Positions 30,086 through 38,561 of a stretch of DNA of 64,000 nt are shown piece after piece. This DNA comes from Thermodesulfobacteriota bacterium (GTDB lineage: Bacteria; Desulfobacterota; Desulfarculia; JACQYL01): NCBI GenBank assembly GCA_963675595.2, contig CAXXLZ010000002.1:2656001-2720000 (forward strand). Direction: 5' to 3'. The position numbers and the translations under genes were made by a program. The notes under the pieces are model-generated. The model ran no database searches and was not told the DNA's origin. It saw only the letters and a list, made by a program, of their open reading frames with translations. The number at the start of each line of letters is the position of its first letter. Position 1 is the first letter of the stretch.

Positions 30086-32625
30086 GGCTTCCTCCGTGCG
30101 GTATCGGCGGATCGGGCGCTCAAGCGCCGTCGCCGAATTGGAATGTGTCCGTTGATCCTGCGCGTTTGAAGAAGGGATTGGGCGGCTTCACATTTCATCG
30201 GCTCGATAGTGCGGCACGGCGAACATAGCCGCATTGCCTCACAAGAATATTGTAGTCAAAATGACCTATTGAAACAACGAGGGGATTTCCGCTCATCCCT
30301 GACGGATTTCATGAACGAAAGGCAATCCGCTCTCCGTCCCGCAAGGAAGTCCGATGCCGGGCGCAGCATACGGCACGTTTCCTTCGATCGAACCGTTGAA
30401 ACACCGCAGAACCCGGGTTTCGGCCGGGGCGAAGCCTTCCAGCCGGCACATTCTCAGGTTGGGGGTGGACAATGGGCCAATGGCATTGTAATAGGGAGGT
30501 CCCTGGTGTATTAGGAAGCCCGGTGTTCTGAACGCGATCCGGTGTAAGCGAGCCTGCGCCCCCGCAAATACCGGTTTGACCCGTCATTGGGCCCACTCAC
30601 CGCTTACGGTGCATAGACCTGTTTCGGAAGATGCAACAATCACCGGCTTGCAGCCTCACGCTTACCCGACCATTTCCGCCTTTGAGCAAGGGATACGACT
30701 TCCCTTTCGGCGCAGGCTCCCACACACACGGGAGAGCCCATCCACCTGACCCTGCGCCGGATCGACCCGGACGTCCGGCCGGCTCACGGGAAATGCCGAA
30801 AGGGTTCGGGGTAATGCTTCCGACCACCTTGGTCGATGCGACCTTAAACGGGACGCACGAACGAGTCTTCTAACAGGAGTTTCAGAGTTGGCGAAGAAGA
30901 CAGTACTCAATTAGCTGAAATCAAGACATAAATCAGCTTTGAAGTTGTAGAACCGAACCGTCGTTTATTGTGTATCCAAGGGCGTTCAGCACCTTGGTTT
31001 GGATGTCGTTGGGCTCCTCGATTTGGACGGACGGTTGTGTGGCGCCCTTCTGCCAGCTCAAGATGGAGTTGAGACTTGCCATTTCTTCGATGAGCGTTTT
31101 TGCGGTTTCGGACCCACCGACCTTGAGTTCGAGGAGTCTCAGACATGAGAGGGCGATGATACACGTCAAAAGATGACAGCGGATTTTGCTGTCGGTCCAA
31201 TGAAACATCGGGTTGATCCTGACGTGGCATGGAGCCTTGCTCACCCGAAACTGCTGCTCGATGCGGTATCTGTCAAGGGAAGCCTGGACGATGGCCTCGG
31301 TATCCCAATCATGATGGTCGGTGACGATGAGATTCTTCCCCATGACGGCCTTCGCCGCCTCGATCTCCGCATAGTCCCTTCGGAAGCTCATGATCTCTTC
31401 CGTGAAAGCCAAGCGATAGAATTTGTGACTGATATGAAGCTGTTCACAGACCTTGTGATAACGGGTGGTGATGGCTTTAGGGTTTCGCCATTGAGGTTCC
31501 CGGTCGCGGAACTTTTGCCGGAATTGGACGAGTTCCGTTTTCAGTTGATCCAGTTTCCGGCTCATATCGTGAAGTTTTTTGCGTTTGGTAACCGGGTTGA
31601 AGGTGACCACCACGGTGCGCTCCCGACCCCATAGGGTCAGCTTGGTCCGGTAGGCGGTGAGTCTGTCCTCGGGGCGTTCTTCGGCTTCGAGCCGATGGTT
31701 TTTGGGGATATCGAGAACCAGGAAGTGCTCGGGATTCAGGGCGGCCAGATGGTCGGCGAAATAGGTGGAATAGGTCGTAATGAAATAGATTCGGCTTTGG
31801 GCATCGATGCGGGCCATGTTTTCTTTTGAATTCATGCCCTTGTCAAAGACGACGGTAAGGGTTTTGTTTCCGTCCGCAAAGCCGAGGATCACGCCGAACA
31901 GCTCGTCGAGAATCCGCTCGAACAGCTTGGAATCATGGAGGTTGCCGGGATAGACCTTGTAATGGATCGGCAATGAGGTAGTGCGATCCGTCAATAATCC
32001 GAGGCCGACTTGCCGCAGGTGGTGTTTTCCGCTCTTGTTGTAACCCCTTGCCGCCAAATCGGAACCGGTCTTGGTGGCCATGTAGGTGAAATAGTTGGTG
32101 GTGTCGAACAGCACGGTGTCGGGGTTCTGCCGGCGACCCGTCCAGAGCCTTTGGAGGAAAAGCCGACCGGCCTTCTCAACCTGTTCCCTGGAAACGCGAT
32201 CCCACTTCTCCCAGTAGCGCTCGGAGGTCAGTTGAGTCAAATCCACTGGACGAATCTGTTGGACGGCGGTCTTTCGGTACCATTCCTCAAGGGAGCGCTT
32301 GCTCTTGGGAGCGATCATTCGGTTGGCCCAGGCGTAGTAGAAATACTCGCCCACCGTGGGGCCGGTTTCGTTACGCCCTCTTGGGACAACACTGTCGATG
32401 ATGCCGATCGTATCCAGTTCTTGTTCCAGGGCATGAGCCACGAAGAGGGCCCCAAAGGACTCTGTTTTAAGTCTGGACGGCTTGCCCGAAGTCTCGGCTT
32501 CTTGGAGTTTGGCGAGGATGGTTTCCGGGGTTCCGAGATACTTTTGCCACTTCACTTGGACCTTCCCGCCGACGCGGTGGACCTCACGAAGATACCAGTA
32601 GGTTCTACCCTTGAAGGTCTTCTTA

Positions 32626-34175
32626 CTAGAGTTTAGAGTCTGGCGACCCTTGGTATAGGAAAAATGCGAATAAAGACAACAAAGTACTTGACATTGCCGC
32701 GCGGATGCGCGGCCGCCTTTGGCGGCCCTTTAAGGAAAGAAACCTTTCCTTGGGGGTCAACCAATGGATTCGACGGCTCAAGCACTTATGCTCCTATCGC
32801 AGTGGATTTCCTTTCTATTTCAGGCCGTTCCGTGCAGAATAGCTCCGACTCTTCTGGAACTCCTGATGGGATGTATGGTCTGCCGCGGCGGCCATATTTC
32901 TTCCGCGCTTCTGGCCGTTCGGCCCCAGTTGTCCTGGACCGCCTATTACAAGGCCATCGAAAAGGGCCGATTCCAATGGCTTGCGCTAGCCCGGCAATGG
33001 ATGCGCCTGATCCTGAAACGGATTCCAAACCGATCCATCGAGTTCGCCATAGACGACTTCCCTTTGCCCAGATCGTCCAAGAAAGCTCCCTGCGCCGGTT
33101 GGCATTACGATCACGCGCACCGGCCCAACCGCCCCAAATTCCTGTGGGGACAGCTTCGGGTTTCTCTGGCTGTCATCTGCCGCCACAAGGGCCGGGTAGC
33201 CGCGTTTCCCCTCTTGTTTCGGCTCATCCGCAAAAAAGGGAACACCACCAAACTGGACGCGGCGCGGCTCTTGATGTCCGTTCTCATGACTTGGCTGCCG
33301 GATCGCTTTCTCATTATTCTGCTGCTCGATGCCTGGTATATGAAAAGCTCCCTGGTGGTTCCCCTGATTCGCGATGGTGTGACGGTCATCGGCCAAGTCC
33401 GCAAAGATACCGCCCTGTTTTTGCCTCCGGACAATCCGCCTCGGAAGAAACGGGGCAGACCCAGAAAGTATGGGGAAAAACTCACGTTGGAAAACATCGG
33501 ACGATTCTGTCGTCCGGTGGAGAAAACCCTCTTTGCCTACGGCTCGGAACGAGTTTTCCAGTTCTACCAAACCAAAGCCAAAGTCCGCTTCCTGGACGGC
33601 CGGTTGTGCAAGATCGTGTGGTGCCGGTTTATGTCCGACAACCCCTCTTGGTCCGATTGGCATCTTCTGATCAGTACCGATCCCGACATGGACGGCGCGG
33701 AAGTGATTACACGCTATGCACGACGATGGTGGACCGAGCCCATGTTCAACGAGATCAAGCACCTGTTCGGACTGAAAAATGCTTGGCAGCAGACACGGCA
33801 GACATTGGCTCGATGGAGCATGATCTTGTGCCTGGCCTACGGCTTGCCACGGCTCTTGGCGCTCTGCCTGGGTCCCAACGCGGCCTATACGATGTTTCCA
33901 ATCCCTTGGAGAAAGAACAGGCCCGCCACCGCCGGCTGGATGGCCGCAGCCATCGGTCGTCTTTTCGGCAACTTAAACGTGCGAGCCATGTGGAACCGGA
34001 AATCCAAAAAATTCCAACCGGAATTCACCGATTCTCCGGAAGACTTGGGGCGCGCTGCCTGATATCCGTGTTCAGTCAATCATCTCAAAGCCTTACGTCA
34101 ACGGTATTCAACCCGTCTTGGAGAACTATGCTCTTCTATACAAACTTGGCTGCCCCGCATGGCTCTAAACTCTAG
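32626..34175 (+). mobile_element. Nested IS4/IS701-like (DDE_5) insertion sequence, 1550 bp
   Basis: Perfect 13-bp IRs CTAGAGTTTAGAG / CTCTAAACTCTAG. 8-bp TSD TCTTCTTA (32618-32625, 34176-34183). Confidence 0.92.
32764..34062 (+). CDS. DDE transposase (IS701/IS4-like)
   Basis: AIDD, LLDAWY, RGRPRKYG and YARRWWTEPMFNEIK motifs. Confidence 0.9.
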   Translation: MDSTAQALMLLSQWISFLFQAVPCRIAPTLLELLMGCMVCRGGHISSALLAVRPQLSWTAYYKAIEKGRFQWLALARQWMRLILKRIPNRSIEFAIDDFPLPRSSKKAPCAGWHYDHAHRPNRPKFLWGQLRVSLAVICRHKGRVAAFPLLFRLIRKKGNTTKLDAARLLMSVLMTWLPDRFLIILLLDAWYMKSSLVVPLIRDGVTVIGQVRKDTALFLPPDNPPRKKRGRPRKYGEKLTLENIGRFCRPVEKTLFAYGSERVFQFYQTKAKVRFLDGRLCKIVWCRFMSDNPSWSDWHLLISTDPDMDGAEVITRYARRWWTEPMFNEIKHLFGLKNAWQQTRQTLARWSMILCLAYGLPRLLALCLGPNAAYTMFPIPWRKNRPATAGWMAAAIGRLFGNLNVRAMWNRKSKKFQPEFTDSPEDLGRAA

Positions 34176-34400
34176 TCTTCTTATACAAATGCGGCATAAT
34201 CGAATTATGCCTAATAGGTTCTACATGTCAAGAGGAAAATCGATTGTCGTTGAAAAATAAGGCGCTTAGATCAGGATATCCGGGGCGGGAAGGTAGGTTC
34301 TACGTATCATCGAGAGGTAACTACCCGAAACTATTATTGAATTTGCCGTTACAAAAGATTATCCCTGAAACTCCTGTCTAACGGTTTCGCAGGAGTTGAT

Positions 34401-35906
34401 ATGCGAACAAATGTCGAAATAGACCCCCTAACTCGCATCGAGGGGCATCTGGCGATACGGCTGGACGTACAGTCGGGAAAGGTTGTTCAGGCTTACAGCT
34501 CCGGAGAGATGTTTCGCGGTTTTGAAGCGATTCTCAAAGGACGTCACCCCATGGATGCCCAGCAGATCACGCAGCGAATCTGCGGAGTCTGCCCCATATC
34601 GCACGGGCTGGCCTCCATTGGAGCGCAGGAGGAAGCTTACGGCGTCAGACCGCCGGAAAACGGACGTCTGGCCCGCAACCTTATCCTCGGAACCAATTAC
34701 ATCCAATCTCACATCGTTCACTTCTACCAGTTATCGGCCCTGGATTTCATCGATATCACCGCCATATTAAAATACTCGGGAGTCGATCCCCTGCTGAACG
34801 GGCTCAAATCCTGGGTCAAATCCCAACTGGATTCGAACGGCATTTTTCCCGCGGCGCCCTTTTTGCCGAGATATGAAGGCCGGTATGTGGAGGACCCCGA
34901 GATCAACATCGGCGCCGTCCGCCACTATCTCGATGCGCTGGAATTTCGGGCTCTGGCCCAGGAAGCCCTGGCCGTGTACGGCGGCAAGGCCCCTCATGCC
35001 ACCGCCCTGATCCCGGGCGGTATTACCGAAAGGATCACCGCCGCCAATATCTCCAAGGTCGCCTCCATCGTAAACAGCCTCCAGGCGTTCGTGGAAACCG
35101 TCTATCTGCCCGATGTGGTGACCGTGGCCAAGTCCTTCCCGGATTACTTCGAGATCGGACGTGGTTGCGGCAATTTTCTCGCCTTTGGAGTTTTTCCCGG
35201 GTCGGACGGGTCCAAATTGCTTCCCGGCGGTCGACTGGCTCAGGGGAAGAAGGCGGATTTCGACCCCGGAAAAATCACCGAGGACACGGCCAGATCCAAG
35301 TTTTCGTCGCCCTCCGGTCTGCACCCCTATGAAGGACGGACCGAACCCGCCCCGGACAAAGCCGAAGCCTACTCATGGCTCAAAGCTCCCCGTTACGACG
35401 GCAAGCCTCACGAGGTCGGCCCTCTGGCCCGGATCCTGGTCGCCTACACCAACGGAGACACCCGGATCAAGAAACTGGTCGATGGTGTTTTACAGAACCT
35501 TTCCCTACCTGTTTCGGCCCTGGATTCGGTCATGGGACGACACGCGGCCCGTGCCTTGGAATGCAAAATCGTGGCCGATCAATGCGGGCATTGGGTTCAG
35601 GAGCTCAAAGCCGGCGAACCCGCCTTTACCGACTTCGAAATCCCCGCCTCGGGCAGAGGCGCCGGACTGACCGAAGCGCCTCGCGGAGCCTTAGGCCACT
35701 GGCTGGAAATCAGGAACCACAGGATATCCAATTATCAATGCGTGGTGCCTTCCACCTGGAATTGTTCCCCCAGAGACGCGGCCGGGGTACCCGGGCCTGT
35801 GGAGACGGCTCTGGAAGGCACTCCGGTGGCCGATCCGAAAAACCCGATCGAGGCGGCCCGCGTCGTCCGATCTTTCGATCCCTGCTTGGCTTGCGCCGTC
35901 CATTGA
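34401..35906 (+). CDS. [NiFe]-hydrogenase large subunit, HysA-like but Cys-containing, with no C-terminal extension
   Basis: TRIEGH, L1 motif RICGVC, EAPRGAL, and L2 motif DPCLACAVH followed directly by the stop. AGGAG RBS. Confidence 0.96.
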   Translation: MRTNVEIDPLTRIEGHLAIRLDVQSGKVVQAYSSGEMFRGFEAILKGRHPMDAQQITQRICGVCPISHGLASIGAQEEAYGVRPPENGRLARNLILGTNYIQSHIVHFYQLSALDFIDITAILKYSGVDPLLNGLKSWVKSQLDSNGIFPAAPFLPRYEGRYVEDPEINIGAVRHYLDALEFRALAQEALAVYGGKAPHATALIPGGITERITAANISKVASIVNSLQAFVETVYLPDVVTVAKSFPDYFEIGRGCGNFLAFGVFPGSDGSKLLPGGRLAQGKKADFDPGKITEDTARSKFSSPSGLHPYEGRTEPAPDKAEAYSWLKAPRYDGKPHEVGPLARILVAYTNGDTRIKKLVDGVLQNLSLPVSALDSVMGRHAARALECKIVADQCGHWVQELKAGEPAFTDFEIPASGRGAGLTEAPRGALGHWLEIRNHRISNYQCVVPSTWNCSPRDAAGVPGPVETALEGTPVADPKNPIEAARVVRSFDPCLACAVH

Positions 35907-35920
35907 TTAAGGAGACGCGG

Positions 35921-36844
35921 ATGTCGGATATCAGCCGTCGTGATTTCATAAGGATGGGGGTCACTCTGACCGCGGCATTGGGTCTGAGTACCACCCTGGT
36001 GCCCCGTGTGGCCGAAGCTCTGGAGGAGTTGGCTTCCGGGCAGGCCCCCGTGCTTTGGCTCCAGGGACAAAGCTGCTCCGGATGTTCGGTCTCGTTCCTC
36101 AATTCCGAGCACCCCTCCCCGGCCGAGGTCTTGACCGGATACATTTCCCTCCTGTTCCATCAGACCATCTCCGCAGCCACCGGCCATACGGCCGTAGACA
36201 TCGTCAATCGCTCCATTGAAAAAGGCGGGTACTACCTCGTCGTCGAAGGGGCCATGCCTTTGGGCATGCCTCAAGCCTGTCTCATGGGCCACGAACCCGT
36301 GATCGACCAGGTCGCTCGCGCCGCGGCCAAGTCCGCGGCCGTGATCGCAGTCGGTTCGTGCGCCGCCACGGGAGGCATTCCGGCGGCCGAGAACAATCCC
36401 ACCGGAGCGGTTAGCGTGCCTGAATTCCTGAAGAAGAAGGGAATCAGCAAACCGGTGATCACCCTTCCGGGGTGTCCCGCTCACCCTGACTGGCTGATCG
36501 GAACCATTGTCCACGTACTCAAATTCGGCCTGCCGGCCTTGGACGCCCTCGGGCGCCCCAAGGTCTTCTACGGCCGCCTGATCCATGAGCAATGTCCCCG
36601 ATTCGCCGACTACGAGCGTGAGAATTTCGCAAGAAGTTTCTCCGATGAGGGCTGTCTCTTCAAACTCGGGTGCCTGGGTCCCATCACCCATGCCGATTGC
36701 ACCGTCCGTCACTGGAATCGGGGAGCCAACACGTGCATCAAAGCCGGCGCTCCCTGCATCGGGTGCGCAGCCCCGGACTTCGCCCGCTCGGCCGCACTGC
36801 CGTTCTACCGCAAGGGTGAACCTTCACGTGAGAAGGAGGCCTAA
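35921..36844 (+). CDS. [NiFe]-hydrogenase small subunit with Tat signal peptide
   Basis: SRRDFI twin-arginine motif, CSGC, GSCA, PGCP, HEQC, CLFKLGC, and [11 protein letters not shown]. No C-terminal TM anchor. Confidence 0.95.
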
Positions 36845-36845
36845 G

Positions 36846-38435
36846 TTGAAGCTGAACGCCAAGCTGATCCTCTCCCTGGTCGTGGTGCTCATGGTAACCG
36901 TGGTCGGCGCCCAAGCCGTTCAATACTTTTGGACCGTAAGCCTGGTCTCCAAAATCAACGAACACAATCTCAACCTGATCAGGGACGGCCAAGAACAGCA
37001 GGCCGCCAATCTATCCGTTTCCGTGATGCGCGGCATCGAAGGTTCCCTGGTCAGGGGAGAAATGGAGAAATTCACCCGTCTGCTGCAATCCCTCAACGGC
37101 GTGGAAGGCCTTCAAGAAGTCTCCCTCTTCGACGCCGGAGGCAAGGTCACCCACTCCTCCAAACCCGAATTCATCGACCGACAAATTCCGGGCGACATCC
37201 AGGCCGACGTGTTCGGCCATGCCGAAGAATACAAACGCGAGACGGCGGAATCCCTCGAGATATACCACCCTCATCTGGTGATCCCCGATTGCATCCGGTG
37301 CCACACTTCCTGGAAAAACAACAAAATTCGCGGAGCCACCATGCTCCGCTTTTCCAAGGAAGCCCTGGTCAAGGCGCAAGGCGAAGCCGAACACGCGCTG
37401 GCCGTCGCCAAGTCGAATTCCATGTGGTCCGCCGTCATGGCGGTGGCCGCGGTGGTGATCATTTTCGTTGTGGGAATGCTGATCACGGTCAGTAAATTCG
37501 TCGGCCGACCCATGGGCAAATTGGTGGAGATGTTGGAGCAATACGATGTGGATCTAACCCTTGAGATGCCCATCCAGTCCAAAGACGAGATCGGAACGGC
37601 TGCCCGACTGTTGAATCGATTCGTCAACAAACTCAATCAGGTCATCGGCCAAGCCCAGAAAGCGGCCACGGCGGTGGGCGAACACGTGGGCGGCCAAGCC
37701 GCGGCCATTGAACAACTGGCCTCTTCCTCCGCCATTATCGCCCGAACCACCAAAGTCAACTCCGACAACTCCCGTCAGGCTGCCGATCTGATGAACCAGG
37801 TCAGCGATAAGGTCGGACGGGCCAACACCACTATCGCTTCCCTGAGCGAGGCCATGATCGGATTGTCCGATGCCGGTAAGCGCGTCGCCGAAATCATGAG
37901 AGTCATAGACGACATCGCCTTCCAAACGAACCTGTTGGCTTTGAACGCGGCTGTGGAAGCGGCGAGAGCGGGAGAGGCCGGGGCCGGTTTCGCGGTCGTT
38001 GCCGACGAGGTACGCGCCCTCGCCCAGAGATCCGCCGAGGCCGCGGGAAACACCTCCGAACTCATGGAAGCGACTCTTGAACGAATCGAACACAGCAACG
38101 GCATGGTCGCCTCCACCAATGAGATGTTCGATGAAATCACTCGGCAGATCGACGCGGCAAACAAGCTCATGGCCGATATTGCCGAAGGTTCCACCGAGCA
38201 GGCCGAGGGCGTGGATCAGATCAACAGCACGCTCAATGAGGTGGACCGGACCACTCAGATCAATTCCGCCCAGGCGGCGGGTCTATCGGAGACCATGTCT
38301 ACGTTTCAGACTTCTTACTCCAAGACGGCATTTCCCGGGGGCCGCACCGGCGGCGGGCGCAAGGCCATCGAGTACAAGCCGAACGCGCCGGCATCCAAAG
38401 AATCCATGCTCCTTGATTCCAATACGGAATTCTAA
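36846..38435 (+). CDS. Methyl-accepting chemotaxis protein with a periplasmic c-type heme sensor domain
   Basis: TTG start 1 nt after the small-subunit stop, with an AGGAGG RBS. TM1, periplasmic domain with CIRCH, TM2, HAMP, and [23 protein letters not shown]. Confidence 0.93.
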
Positions 38436-38436
38436 A

Positions 38437-38561
38437 AGGTTTATGAAAAACGCGATCTGCGGCGCGCGTTGCGCTTCACCCCTCGTCACCAGGGCGTACC
38501 CTATGTACGCCTCCTTCCTCGGGACTTTCGCGCCGTACATCTCATCGTTTTTCATAAGCCT
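38437..38561. repeat. MITE/REP-like palindromic element (125 bp)
   Basis: Terminal IRs AGGTTTATGAAAAACG / CGTTTTTCATAAGCCT and an internal GGCGTAC/GTACGCC hairpin. Shares the 17-mer AAAACGCGATCTGCGGC with 17024-17040. Confidence 0.7.

Follow-up and report, generated by a model that had tools for sequence, protein, structure and literature searches.

A conserved [NiFe] hydrogenase and haem-c chemoreceptor cassette that probably senses H2 outside the cell

The 64,000-nt stretch of a Thermodesulfobacteriota genome analysed here (the window) carries on its plus strand three adjacent genes which code, in this order, for the large subunit (LSU) and the small subunit (SSU) of a [NiFe] hydrogenase and for a methyl-accepting chemotaxis protein (MCP) with a haem-c motif in its periplasmic part. 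This trio is probably a hitherto undescribed device for sensing H2 outside the cell. The arrangement is not a chance one, since it recurs in 33 distinct LSU-SSU-CxxCH-MCP loci (window included), with the LSU gene first in all 33. That H2 is sensed through the hydrogenase and haem-MCP pair is the reading that we hold, with fair confidence; in its most economical form, the hydrogenase serves as the ligand-recognising part of the receptor, and its electrons set both the redox state and the ligation of the haem.

Anatomy of the three-gene cassette

The three genes are co-oriented and tightly packed. The LSU gene (501 aa, 34401-35906) is followed after 14 nt by the SSU gene (307 aa, 35921-36844, ATG start at 35921) and, after 1 nt more, by the MCP gene (529 aa, 36846-38435, TTG start at 36846). 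An AGGAG-type ribosome-binding site precedes each of the three start codons, the three reading frames are intact in this genome, and a consensus promoter and terminator scan (with counts not above those of shuffled sequence) revealed no plus-strand terminator inside the operon. The same reading frames, gene order and gaps had been given in a preliminary description of this DNA, and we read them identically.

The LSU matches PF00374 (E 1e-160); it has RIEGH and RICGVCPISH near its N-terminus and ends with DPCLACAVH (35877-35903). It passes the NF033181 model ('NiFeSe_hydrog') with 650.7 bits for a cut-off of 600 and fails the selenocysteine (Sec)-specific HysA model NF045518 (517.5 bits, cut-off 780); its DPCLAC motif has Cys where [NiFeSe] HysA has Sec (DPUxxC). 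The closest solved structures of the LSU are the [NiFeSe] large subunits of D. vulgaris (5jsu_B, E 7.7e-127) and structures of [NiFeSe] enzymes from D. vulgaris and Dm. baculatum rank first for both subunits. On these scores and motifs, the LSU is the Cys form of a [NiFeSe]-like group 1 lineage. The RxEGH Glu and the RICGVC Val are kept in 37/37 LSUs of the clade to which it belongs (the LSU-first clade, see below), so that it looks catalytically ordinary by sequence.

As announced in the preliminary description, the stop codon comes directly after the last His of DPCLACAVH, with no C-terminal extension. Not a single residue follows this His in the 36 readable LSUs of the LSU-first clade (the LSU of locus L034, which is truncated and thus unreadable at its C-terminus, was left out). 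For comparison, we took 25 group 1 LSU loci from a sample of the phylum, i.e. 20 high NF033181 scorers, three of them Sec forms, and five standard enzymes: all 25, Sec forms included, have 13-17 further residues past the His. The extension is 15-17 residues long in the [NiFeSe]-type loci L080-L082, and PDB chain 5jsu_B continues for 15 residues past the His; this contradicts the earlier statement that HysAB large subunits lack an extension. The sole HycI-type protease of the genome adjoins a second, separate hydrogenase of the standard type, not the cassette.

The SSU (PF01058 and PF14720) displays a twin-arginine translocation (Tat) motif, SRRDFI, at residues 5-10 (35933-35950) and a hydrophilic C-terminus, in keeping with the Tat signal without membrane anchor reported before. 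An RRxF motif is found in 36/37 SSUs of the LSU-first clade, the exception being the fragmentary SSU of L031. The subunit is predicted to be exported by Tat, and the enzyme to be periplasmic. The residues expected to hold its iron-sulphur clusters are invariant in 33/33 SSUs (mature numbering): C15, C18, C110 and C148 for the proximal cluster, C223, C235, C242 and C245 for the medial one, H185, C188 and C214 for the distal one. From this pattern of ligands, all three clusters are expected to be [4Fe-4S]. The additional medial Cys of the window SSU (Cys272, 36734-36736) aligns with that of the closest solved SSU structure (2wpn_A, E 1.9e-76), and the column concerned is Cys in 36/36 readable SSUs of the clade and in HysB-like SSUs as well, versus Pro (W-P-I/V) in seven standard SSUs, including that of the genome's second hydrogenase. 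The alignment thus agrees with the Cys-for-Pro replacement, and with the medial [4Fe-4S] cluster predicted from it, of the preliminary description; it also indicates that this Cys is a legacy of the HysAB-like lineage rather than a trait special to the LSU-first clade.

The MCP, supported as such by its Pfam matches and its orthologues, is composed of a first transmembrane segment (TM1), a periplasmic haem-c sensor domain (residues 27-192, 36924-37421), a second transmembrane segment (TM2), a HAMP domain (PF00672, residues 217-265) and a signalling domain (PF00015, MCPsignal, residues 314-469, E 1.8e-40). The CIRCH haem motif (37290-37304; DCIRCH, 37287-37304) lies, as described before, in the part framed by the two hydrophobic segments. 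An AlphaFold2 model of the sensor, built from a 22-sequence alignment, reached a pLDDT of 90.4. It has a long helix at the N-terminus and a sheet of the Cache/PAS type, and a short helix at 121-124 carries C123-H127 between strands 110-118 and 135-144. Foldseek matches of this model include the sensor domains of WalK, CitA, DcuS and DctB, GSU0935 (3b42), GSU0582 (3b47) and the haem protein Tll0287 (5b82); a sequence search of the PDB returned only GSU0582 (3b47_A, E 0.0056) and GSU0935 (3b42_A, E 0.59). The fold agrees with the definition given for the sCache_haem family by a preprint of 2026 (PMC12889525), namely a single Cache with CxxCH on a short helix set between late beta strands. Since it misses the Pfam gathering scores in spite of this fold (19.1 bits for a cut-off of 27 with PF21563, Mcp40H-20_sensor; no match with PF11845, Tll0287-like), the window sensor is a divergent relative of that family. 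Of the 33 sensors, PF11845 picks up 17 (best E 0.004) and PF21563 picks up 14 (best E 2.1e-5), all of them weakly.

Ten positions of the sensor are invariant in 33/33 sequences (domain numbering): S41, R44, M47, F50, G62, C123, R125, C126, H127 and G137. Met47, which is Met73 of the MCP (37062-37064, within RGEM), is the likely candidate for the distal haem ligand. Pairwise alignment puts it 4-5 residues away from the Met60 position of GSU0582 and GSU0935, to which it may be equivalent. The ligand role is also consistent with locus L030, where CxxCH and Met were lost together. As a detail, the window MCP ends with SNTEF (38418-38432), reminiscent of the pentapeptide by which certain receptors tether CheR and CheB at their C-terminus; the orthologues do not conserve it.

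Recurrence of the cassette and descent of its hydrogenase

Orthologues were searched for in 41 related genomes, and 9-15 kb around each match were fetched. Seven LSU orthologues (61-82% identity) were found, and in all seven loci the LSU and SSU genes are followed by the gene of a full-length MCP homologue, in which DC[IV]RCH is invariant. An LSU scan of 185,579 species genomes (one per species) gave 18 loci, carried by Syntrophobacteraceae, three Magnetococcales, Omnitrophota, Planctomycetota, two Verrucomicrobiota, Desulfothermus and unclassified metagenome-assembled genomes. A CxxCH-MCP gene directly follows the SSU gene in 13 of them. The other five are L030, whose MCP is haem-less, L033 and L034, which have no MCP, L031, which is degraded (frameshifted SSU, MCP present only as fragments), and L036, cut by a contig end. 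Twelve further MCP-linked loci all have the order LSU, SSU, MCP, with HAMP and MCPsignal domains in the downstream gene wherever this was checked. Whether the LSU-SSU-haem-MCP order recurs was a question raised by the preliminary description, together with the adverse possibility that orthologues might mostly lack an adjacent haem receptor: with 33 loci in hand, and linkage in 13/18 and 7/7 loci, the second did not hold, and the proposal that hydrogenase and haem-MCP form a conserved unit is borne out by linkage across loci within one clade.

Some of these loci show peculiarities. In L022 (5232-8746), two tandem haem-MCP genes, separated by a 94-aa SSU-like fragment, follow the hydrogenase genes, which suggests a local duplication. 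The MCPs of the three Magnetococcales loci L025, L026 and L037 (705-713 aa) have a further CxxCH, carried by some 30 residues inserted into the sensor.

The phylogeny of the LSU was approached by an IQ-TREE quick run on 61 sequences, from which L034 (truncated) was dropped and L036 (cut) left out. The 33 MCP-linked LSUs and those of L030, L031 and L033 make up one clade (36 rows, SH-aLRT 100), inside which the three variants are nested. This LSU-first clade lies within the [NiFeSe]-like group 1 radiation, where the preliminary description had left its place to be settled by a tree, and its sisters are SSU-first HysA-like groups. Loss of the extension coincides with the clade (36/36 readable LSUs versus 0/25 comparators). 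The gene order does much the same: the SSU gene directly precedes the LSU gene in 23/25 comparators (the exceptions are L079 and L083, the latter with a lone LSU gene), in line with the reversal of the usual order noted previously. That LSU-first order and a missing C-terminal extension are specific to this clade is therefore supported by the sequences compared. Because one clade shares MCP linkage, LSU-first order and lack of extension, a single ancestral step, or several in close succession, would have joined the MCP, inverted the order and dropped protease-dependent maturation. The comparator L079 (700-5051) has its own arrangement, unlike that of the cassette: a HysA-like LSU gene first, with a 17-residue C-terminal peptide, then a 208-aa unknown gene, a gene for a Tat SSU and one for a HybA-like 4Fe-4S protein.

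The linkage was also examined from the sensor side. A 22-sequence profile of the periplasmic domain matched 44 of 401 genomes of the phylum. Among the 30 loci listed, the 18 scoring at least 98 bits all have LSU and SSU genes immediately upstream, and none of the 12 weaker ones has either within 1.5 kb; the cassette is thus present in at least 18 of the 401 sampled genomes. In the genome of the window, the sensor domain is single-copy. On a larger scale, a profile run against 1.84 billion representative proteins gave 691 clusters at E<=0.001, 197 of them at E<=1e-30. Among the best 150 representative clusters, 149 have CxxCH within the first 260 residues and 120 have an MCP signalling domain. 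The other 30 comprise 25 sequences of less than 350 aa, which look like fragments, three in which the sensor is fused to hybrid histidine kinases, one PAS-SpoIIE phosphatase and one with HAMP only (kinase and phosphatase carriers: P0009, P0084, P0093 and P0101). For the kinase-type P0009, neither LSU nor sensor was found by tblastn near its matches in 80 metagenome loci, the scan patterns having come from the kinase core; these same loci gave one weak SSU match (L175, 30% identity).

What surrounds the cassette is variable. Pfam searches of 97 flanking open reading frames (ORFs) from 14 loci revealed no shared neighbour gene and, beside these 14 cassettes, no cytochrome b, cytochrome c3, HybA or maturation protease; likewise, the absence of cytochrome b or c3, protease and hyp genes pointed out earlier for the window holds among the neighbours scanned. 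In L024 and L028 the cassette is immediately preceded by CheA and CheW genes, HypD and HypF adjoin L026, HypF adjoins L037, and a cytochrome c assembly gene and HemD adjoin L032. The flanks of the window cassette, compared by blastn and tblastx with those of its 82%-identical orthologue, show no similarity outside the trio. The GC content of the cassette is 0.58-0.62 versus 0.52-0.57 around it (window 34500-38500). This GC contrast, the unlike flanks and the mixing of phyla nested in the tree suggest that the trio was transferred laterally as a unit.

These data bear on a more ordinary interpretation, which we regard as unlikely: an energy-conserving periplasmic uptake hydrogenase feeding the general cytochrome pool of the periplasm, the MCP being a redox or energy-taxis receptor of that pool or merely co-expressed, and making no specific contact with the hydrogenase. 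The nearest solved relatives are indeed bona fide uptake enzymes, the catalytic motifs are intact, and three related haem-MCPs stand without a nearby hydrogenase. Moreover, the Verrucomicrobiota orthologues adjoin not an MCP but a nine-haem cytochrome: in L033 (1432-10446) and L034 (1510-10436), the product of an upstream gene (1480-1512 aa) has PATR repeats and nine CxxCH motifs and may be an alternative haem partner, and another PATR protein is encoded downstream. Against this, the MCP remains adjacent while the flanks vary in 13 of the 17 informative loci that the hydrogenase scan gave, and the pair is equally kept, with varying flanks, in the 18/18 listed sensor matches at or above 98 bits. 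The maturation peptide was lost, and the order inverted, exactly where the MCP appears; there is no cytochrome partner in the 14 cassettes examined; and the genome of the window already has a standard uptake hydrogenase.

Another interpretation is prompted by L030 (2838-4796, Planctomycetota), in which a homologous sensor has DLHRL in place of CxxCH and PGEEEKF in place of RGEMEKF. The hydrogenase could signal by protein-protein contact, its binding to the sensor domain changing with its H2-dependent redox state, as has been proposed for HoxBC-HoxJ, with a haem that is structural or modulatory and not the acceptor of the electrons; regulatory hydrogenases do act in complex with a kinase (PMC6978683), and L030 keeps its sensor without CxxCH and Met. 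Nevertheless CxRCH and Met are invariant in 33/33 other sensors, CxxCH is present in 149 of the best 150 clusters, and L030 is known from a single 6.3-kb contig of a metagenome-assembled genome. We consider signalling by contact very unlikely.

Proposed sensing of H2 through the receptor haem

If H2 is sensed through the hydrogenase and haem-MCP pair, as we favour, the following sequence of events can be envisaged. The Hyp system of the genome would mature LSU and SSU with no need for a C-terminal proteolytic step, and Tat would export the dimer, soluble in the periplasm. There, the hydrogenase would oxidise H2 and the electrons would run along the three [4Fe-4S] clusters, the distal one of which would reduce the c-type haem of the sCache-like sensor in the adjacent MCP. 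The reduction would alter the ligation of the haem, Met73 being a likely ligand by analogy with GSU0582 and GSU0935, whose haems bind Met60 when reduced and thereby pass from the high-spin to the low-spin state (PMC8396549). The change would then reach the signalling domain through TM2 and HAMP, and CheA activity and swimming would follow periplasmic H2. Such hydrogenases being reversible, the haem might simply equilibrate with the H2/H+ couple. Direct electron transfer from the distal cluster to the receptor haem is a tentative part of this scheme, with the case for it falling a little short of the case against. A prediction of the SSU-sensor complex (33-row alignments, with haem and three 4Fe-4S clusters) gave a median of 0.31, for a mark of 0.32, and speaks neither for nor against binding.

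A more general proposition can be formulated, which is about as tentative and which we do not quite lean towards in its entirety. A reversible, Tat-exported [NiFe] hydrogenase might serve as a biological hydrogen electrode, holding the haem of a dedicated sCache receptor at equilibrium with the H2/H+ couple of the periplasm, and thereby provide a direct extracytoplasmic sense of H2 in at least five phyla; the output would be chemotaxis in most cases, and hybrid kinases or a PP2C-type phosphatase otherwise. The enzymes concerned could then be a separate class, arisen once from [NiFeSe]-like uptake enzymes.

The properties of related haem domains leave room for another role of the hydrogenase. 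The MCP haem could be a sensor of nitric oxide (NO), CO or O2, kept ferrous, and hence able to bind its ligand, by the hydrogenase acting as a dedicated reductase, in which case H2 would be the reductant and not the signal. GSU0582 and GSU0935 bind CO and NO, which displace Met60 (PMC8396549), signalling sCache_haem domains have been proposed to be NO sensors (PMC12889525), and the periplasm presumably has no general low-potential reductant. Nothing in the flanks of the 14 loci, however, indicates NO or O2 metabolism; a whole hydrogenase would be a costly helper for one haem; and the window sensor misses both haem-sensor Pfam gathering scores, so that the properties of the family may not transfer to it. 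We judge a gas sensor of this kind decidedly improbable.

Several observations do weigh against H2 sensing through the pair. In regulatory hydrogenases the gas channel is narrowed, Ile replacing Val within R-x-C-G-x-C. This substitution is absent from the LSU-first clade (Val in 37/37), whose LSUs retain, with the RxEGH Glu and the RICGVC Val, the features of a turnover enzyme. The haem-less L030 and the MCP-less L033 and L034 point to a haem that is dispensable in places. Within 1.5 kb of three fairly close sensor homologues of intermediate score (87-95 bits) there is no hydrogenase gene; two of the three (L105 and L106) have none over 12.5 kb either. In the window itself, an insertion sequence stands between the operon and its native upstream region, which makes expression here uncertain. 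Finally, the 2026 preprint on sCache_haem domains argues that the signalling ones sense NO (PMC12889525).

Comparison with known systems helps to place the cassette. The large subunits of group 2b hydrogenases have no C-terminal maturation peptide. The group 2b systems (HoxBC-HoxJ of Cupriavidus necator/Ralstonia eutropha, HupUV-HupT) are similar in principle, in that a hydrogenase is the input of a signalling protein, and the window enzyme resembles them by its missing LSU extension and its ligands for three [4Fe-4S] clusters (cluster types being deduced from the ligands only). Their SSU likewise has three [4Fe-4S] clusters (PMC5665086), but they are cytoplasmic, with a PAS histidine kinase as partner that controls transcription (HydDB table, PMC5037454; PMC6978683). 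The window system differs from them in several respects: the SSU has a Tat signal, absent from group 2b, the enzyme is of group 1 [NiFeSe]-like descent with Val in RICGVC, and the partner is a haem-c HAMP-MCP instead of a HoxJ/HupT-type kinase. The closest enzymes by sequence and structure are the HysAB hydrogenases of D. vulgaris Hildenborough (2WPN/5JSU) and Desulfomicrobium baculatum (1CC1/4KL8); shared with them are the NF033181 match, the Tat SSU without anchor and the Cys as fourth medial ligand. Unlike HysAB, the window enzyme has Cys rather than Sec, an LSU-first order, no 13-17-residue peptide, no adjacent protease, and an MCP downstream.

On the receptor side, the nearest counterparts are GSU0582 and GSU0935 of Geobacter sulfurreducens (3B47 and 3B42; PF21563 and PF11845). 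They have the same single-Cache fold within an MCP, CxxCH on a short helix, and a Met in the N-terminal helix region as a candidate distal ligand. However, the literature treats them as stand-alone sensors of redox state or of gases, the word hydrogenase is absent from those papers naming them that our literature search gave, and the window sensor departs from them by scores below both Pfam cut-offs and by an invariant Met offset from Met60. DcrA of Desulfovibrio vulgaris, an MCP with a periplasmic c-type haem, is said to sense O2 or redox potential, and we know of no hydrogenase partner reported for it.

In the HydDB table, [NiFe] sensors are limited to groups 2b (kinase-linked) and 2c (cyclase-linked, putative), and 'chemotactic' appears only among [FeFe] enzymes, i.e. 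for group C2, 'chemotactic (putative)', where the hydrogenase is presumed to report H2 to an MCP (PMC5037454). That group, besides being only putative, belongs to another metalloenzyme class and has neither an exported [NiFe] enzyme nor a haem relay. Full-text literature searches, which did not cover supplements (those of PMC2825233 and PMC12889525, for instance, could list such neighbourhoods), turned up no account of a haem MCP with a [NiFe] hydrogenase as its partner; the preliminary description, too, had known of no characterised system of this kind. The cassette is thus probably a form of hydrogenase-based H2 sensing not previously described: periplasmic, group 1-derived and linked to a haem chemoreceptor. 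H2 is a central currency of anoxic ecosystems, and H2 taxis has been shown only in a methanogen, in a report whose abstract names no receptor (PMC3817446). If our interpretation is right, the missing receptor for bacterial H2 taxis would be named, a functional class would be added to the classification of hydrogenases and the sCache_haem receptors would gain a defined physiological reductant, all this in a compact cassette of three genes and about 4 kb.

Insertion sequences upstream and genome context

The features of the locus listed in the preliminary description are all present, except that it overlooked a composite insertion sequence (30873-34378, identified by NF033559, PF13546 and DNA searches of the genome against itself), which ends 22 nt upstream of the LSU start. 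It consists of an outer IS1634-family element (30873-32625 and 34176-34378), with its transposase gene at 30933-32555 on the minus strand (NCBIfam NF033559), interrupted by an inner DDE_5 insertion sequence of about 1.55 kb (around 32626-34175), with its transposase ORF at 32764-34062 on the plus strand (PF13546). The boundary at 34378 was set by alignment with an uninterrupted copy of the outer element present elsewhere in the genome (C1:1393824-1395771), and both ends of the outer element carry the inverted repeat GACAGGAGTTTCAG. The composite element is not part of the sensor system; it displaces the native upstream region and promoter. With mobile DNA ending so close to the LSU gene, transcription of the operon must start in the insertion sequence or read through it. 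One promoter-like plus-strand site (34310-34337) was found inside the end of the insertion sequence, in the scan whose counts are not above those of shuffled sequence.

Elsewhere, the genome holds the machinery that the system requires: Hyp genes, with HypD about 350 kb from the cassette, TatC, cytochrome c maturation genes, two CheA genes and six flagellin matches. An ORF at 32664-34175 (503 aa) was rejected as an upstream gene, the real gene there being the DDE_5 transposase in another frame. Apart from the inner DDE_5 element itself, the genome contains 12 full-length copies of it that are 100% identical, as well as one at 99% and one at 93%; the identical copies indicate a recent burst of transposition.

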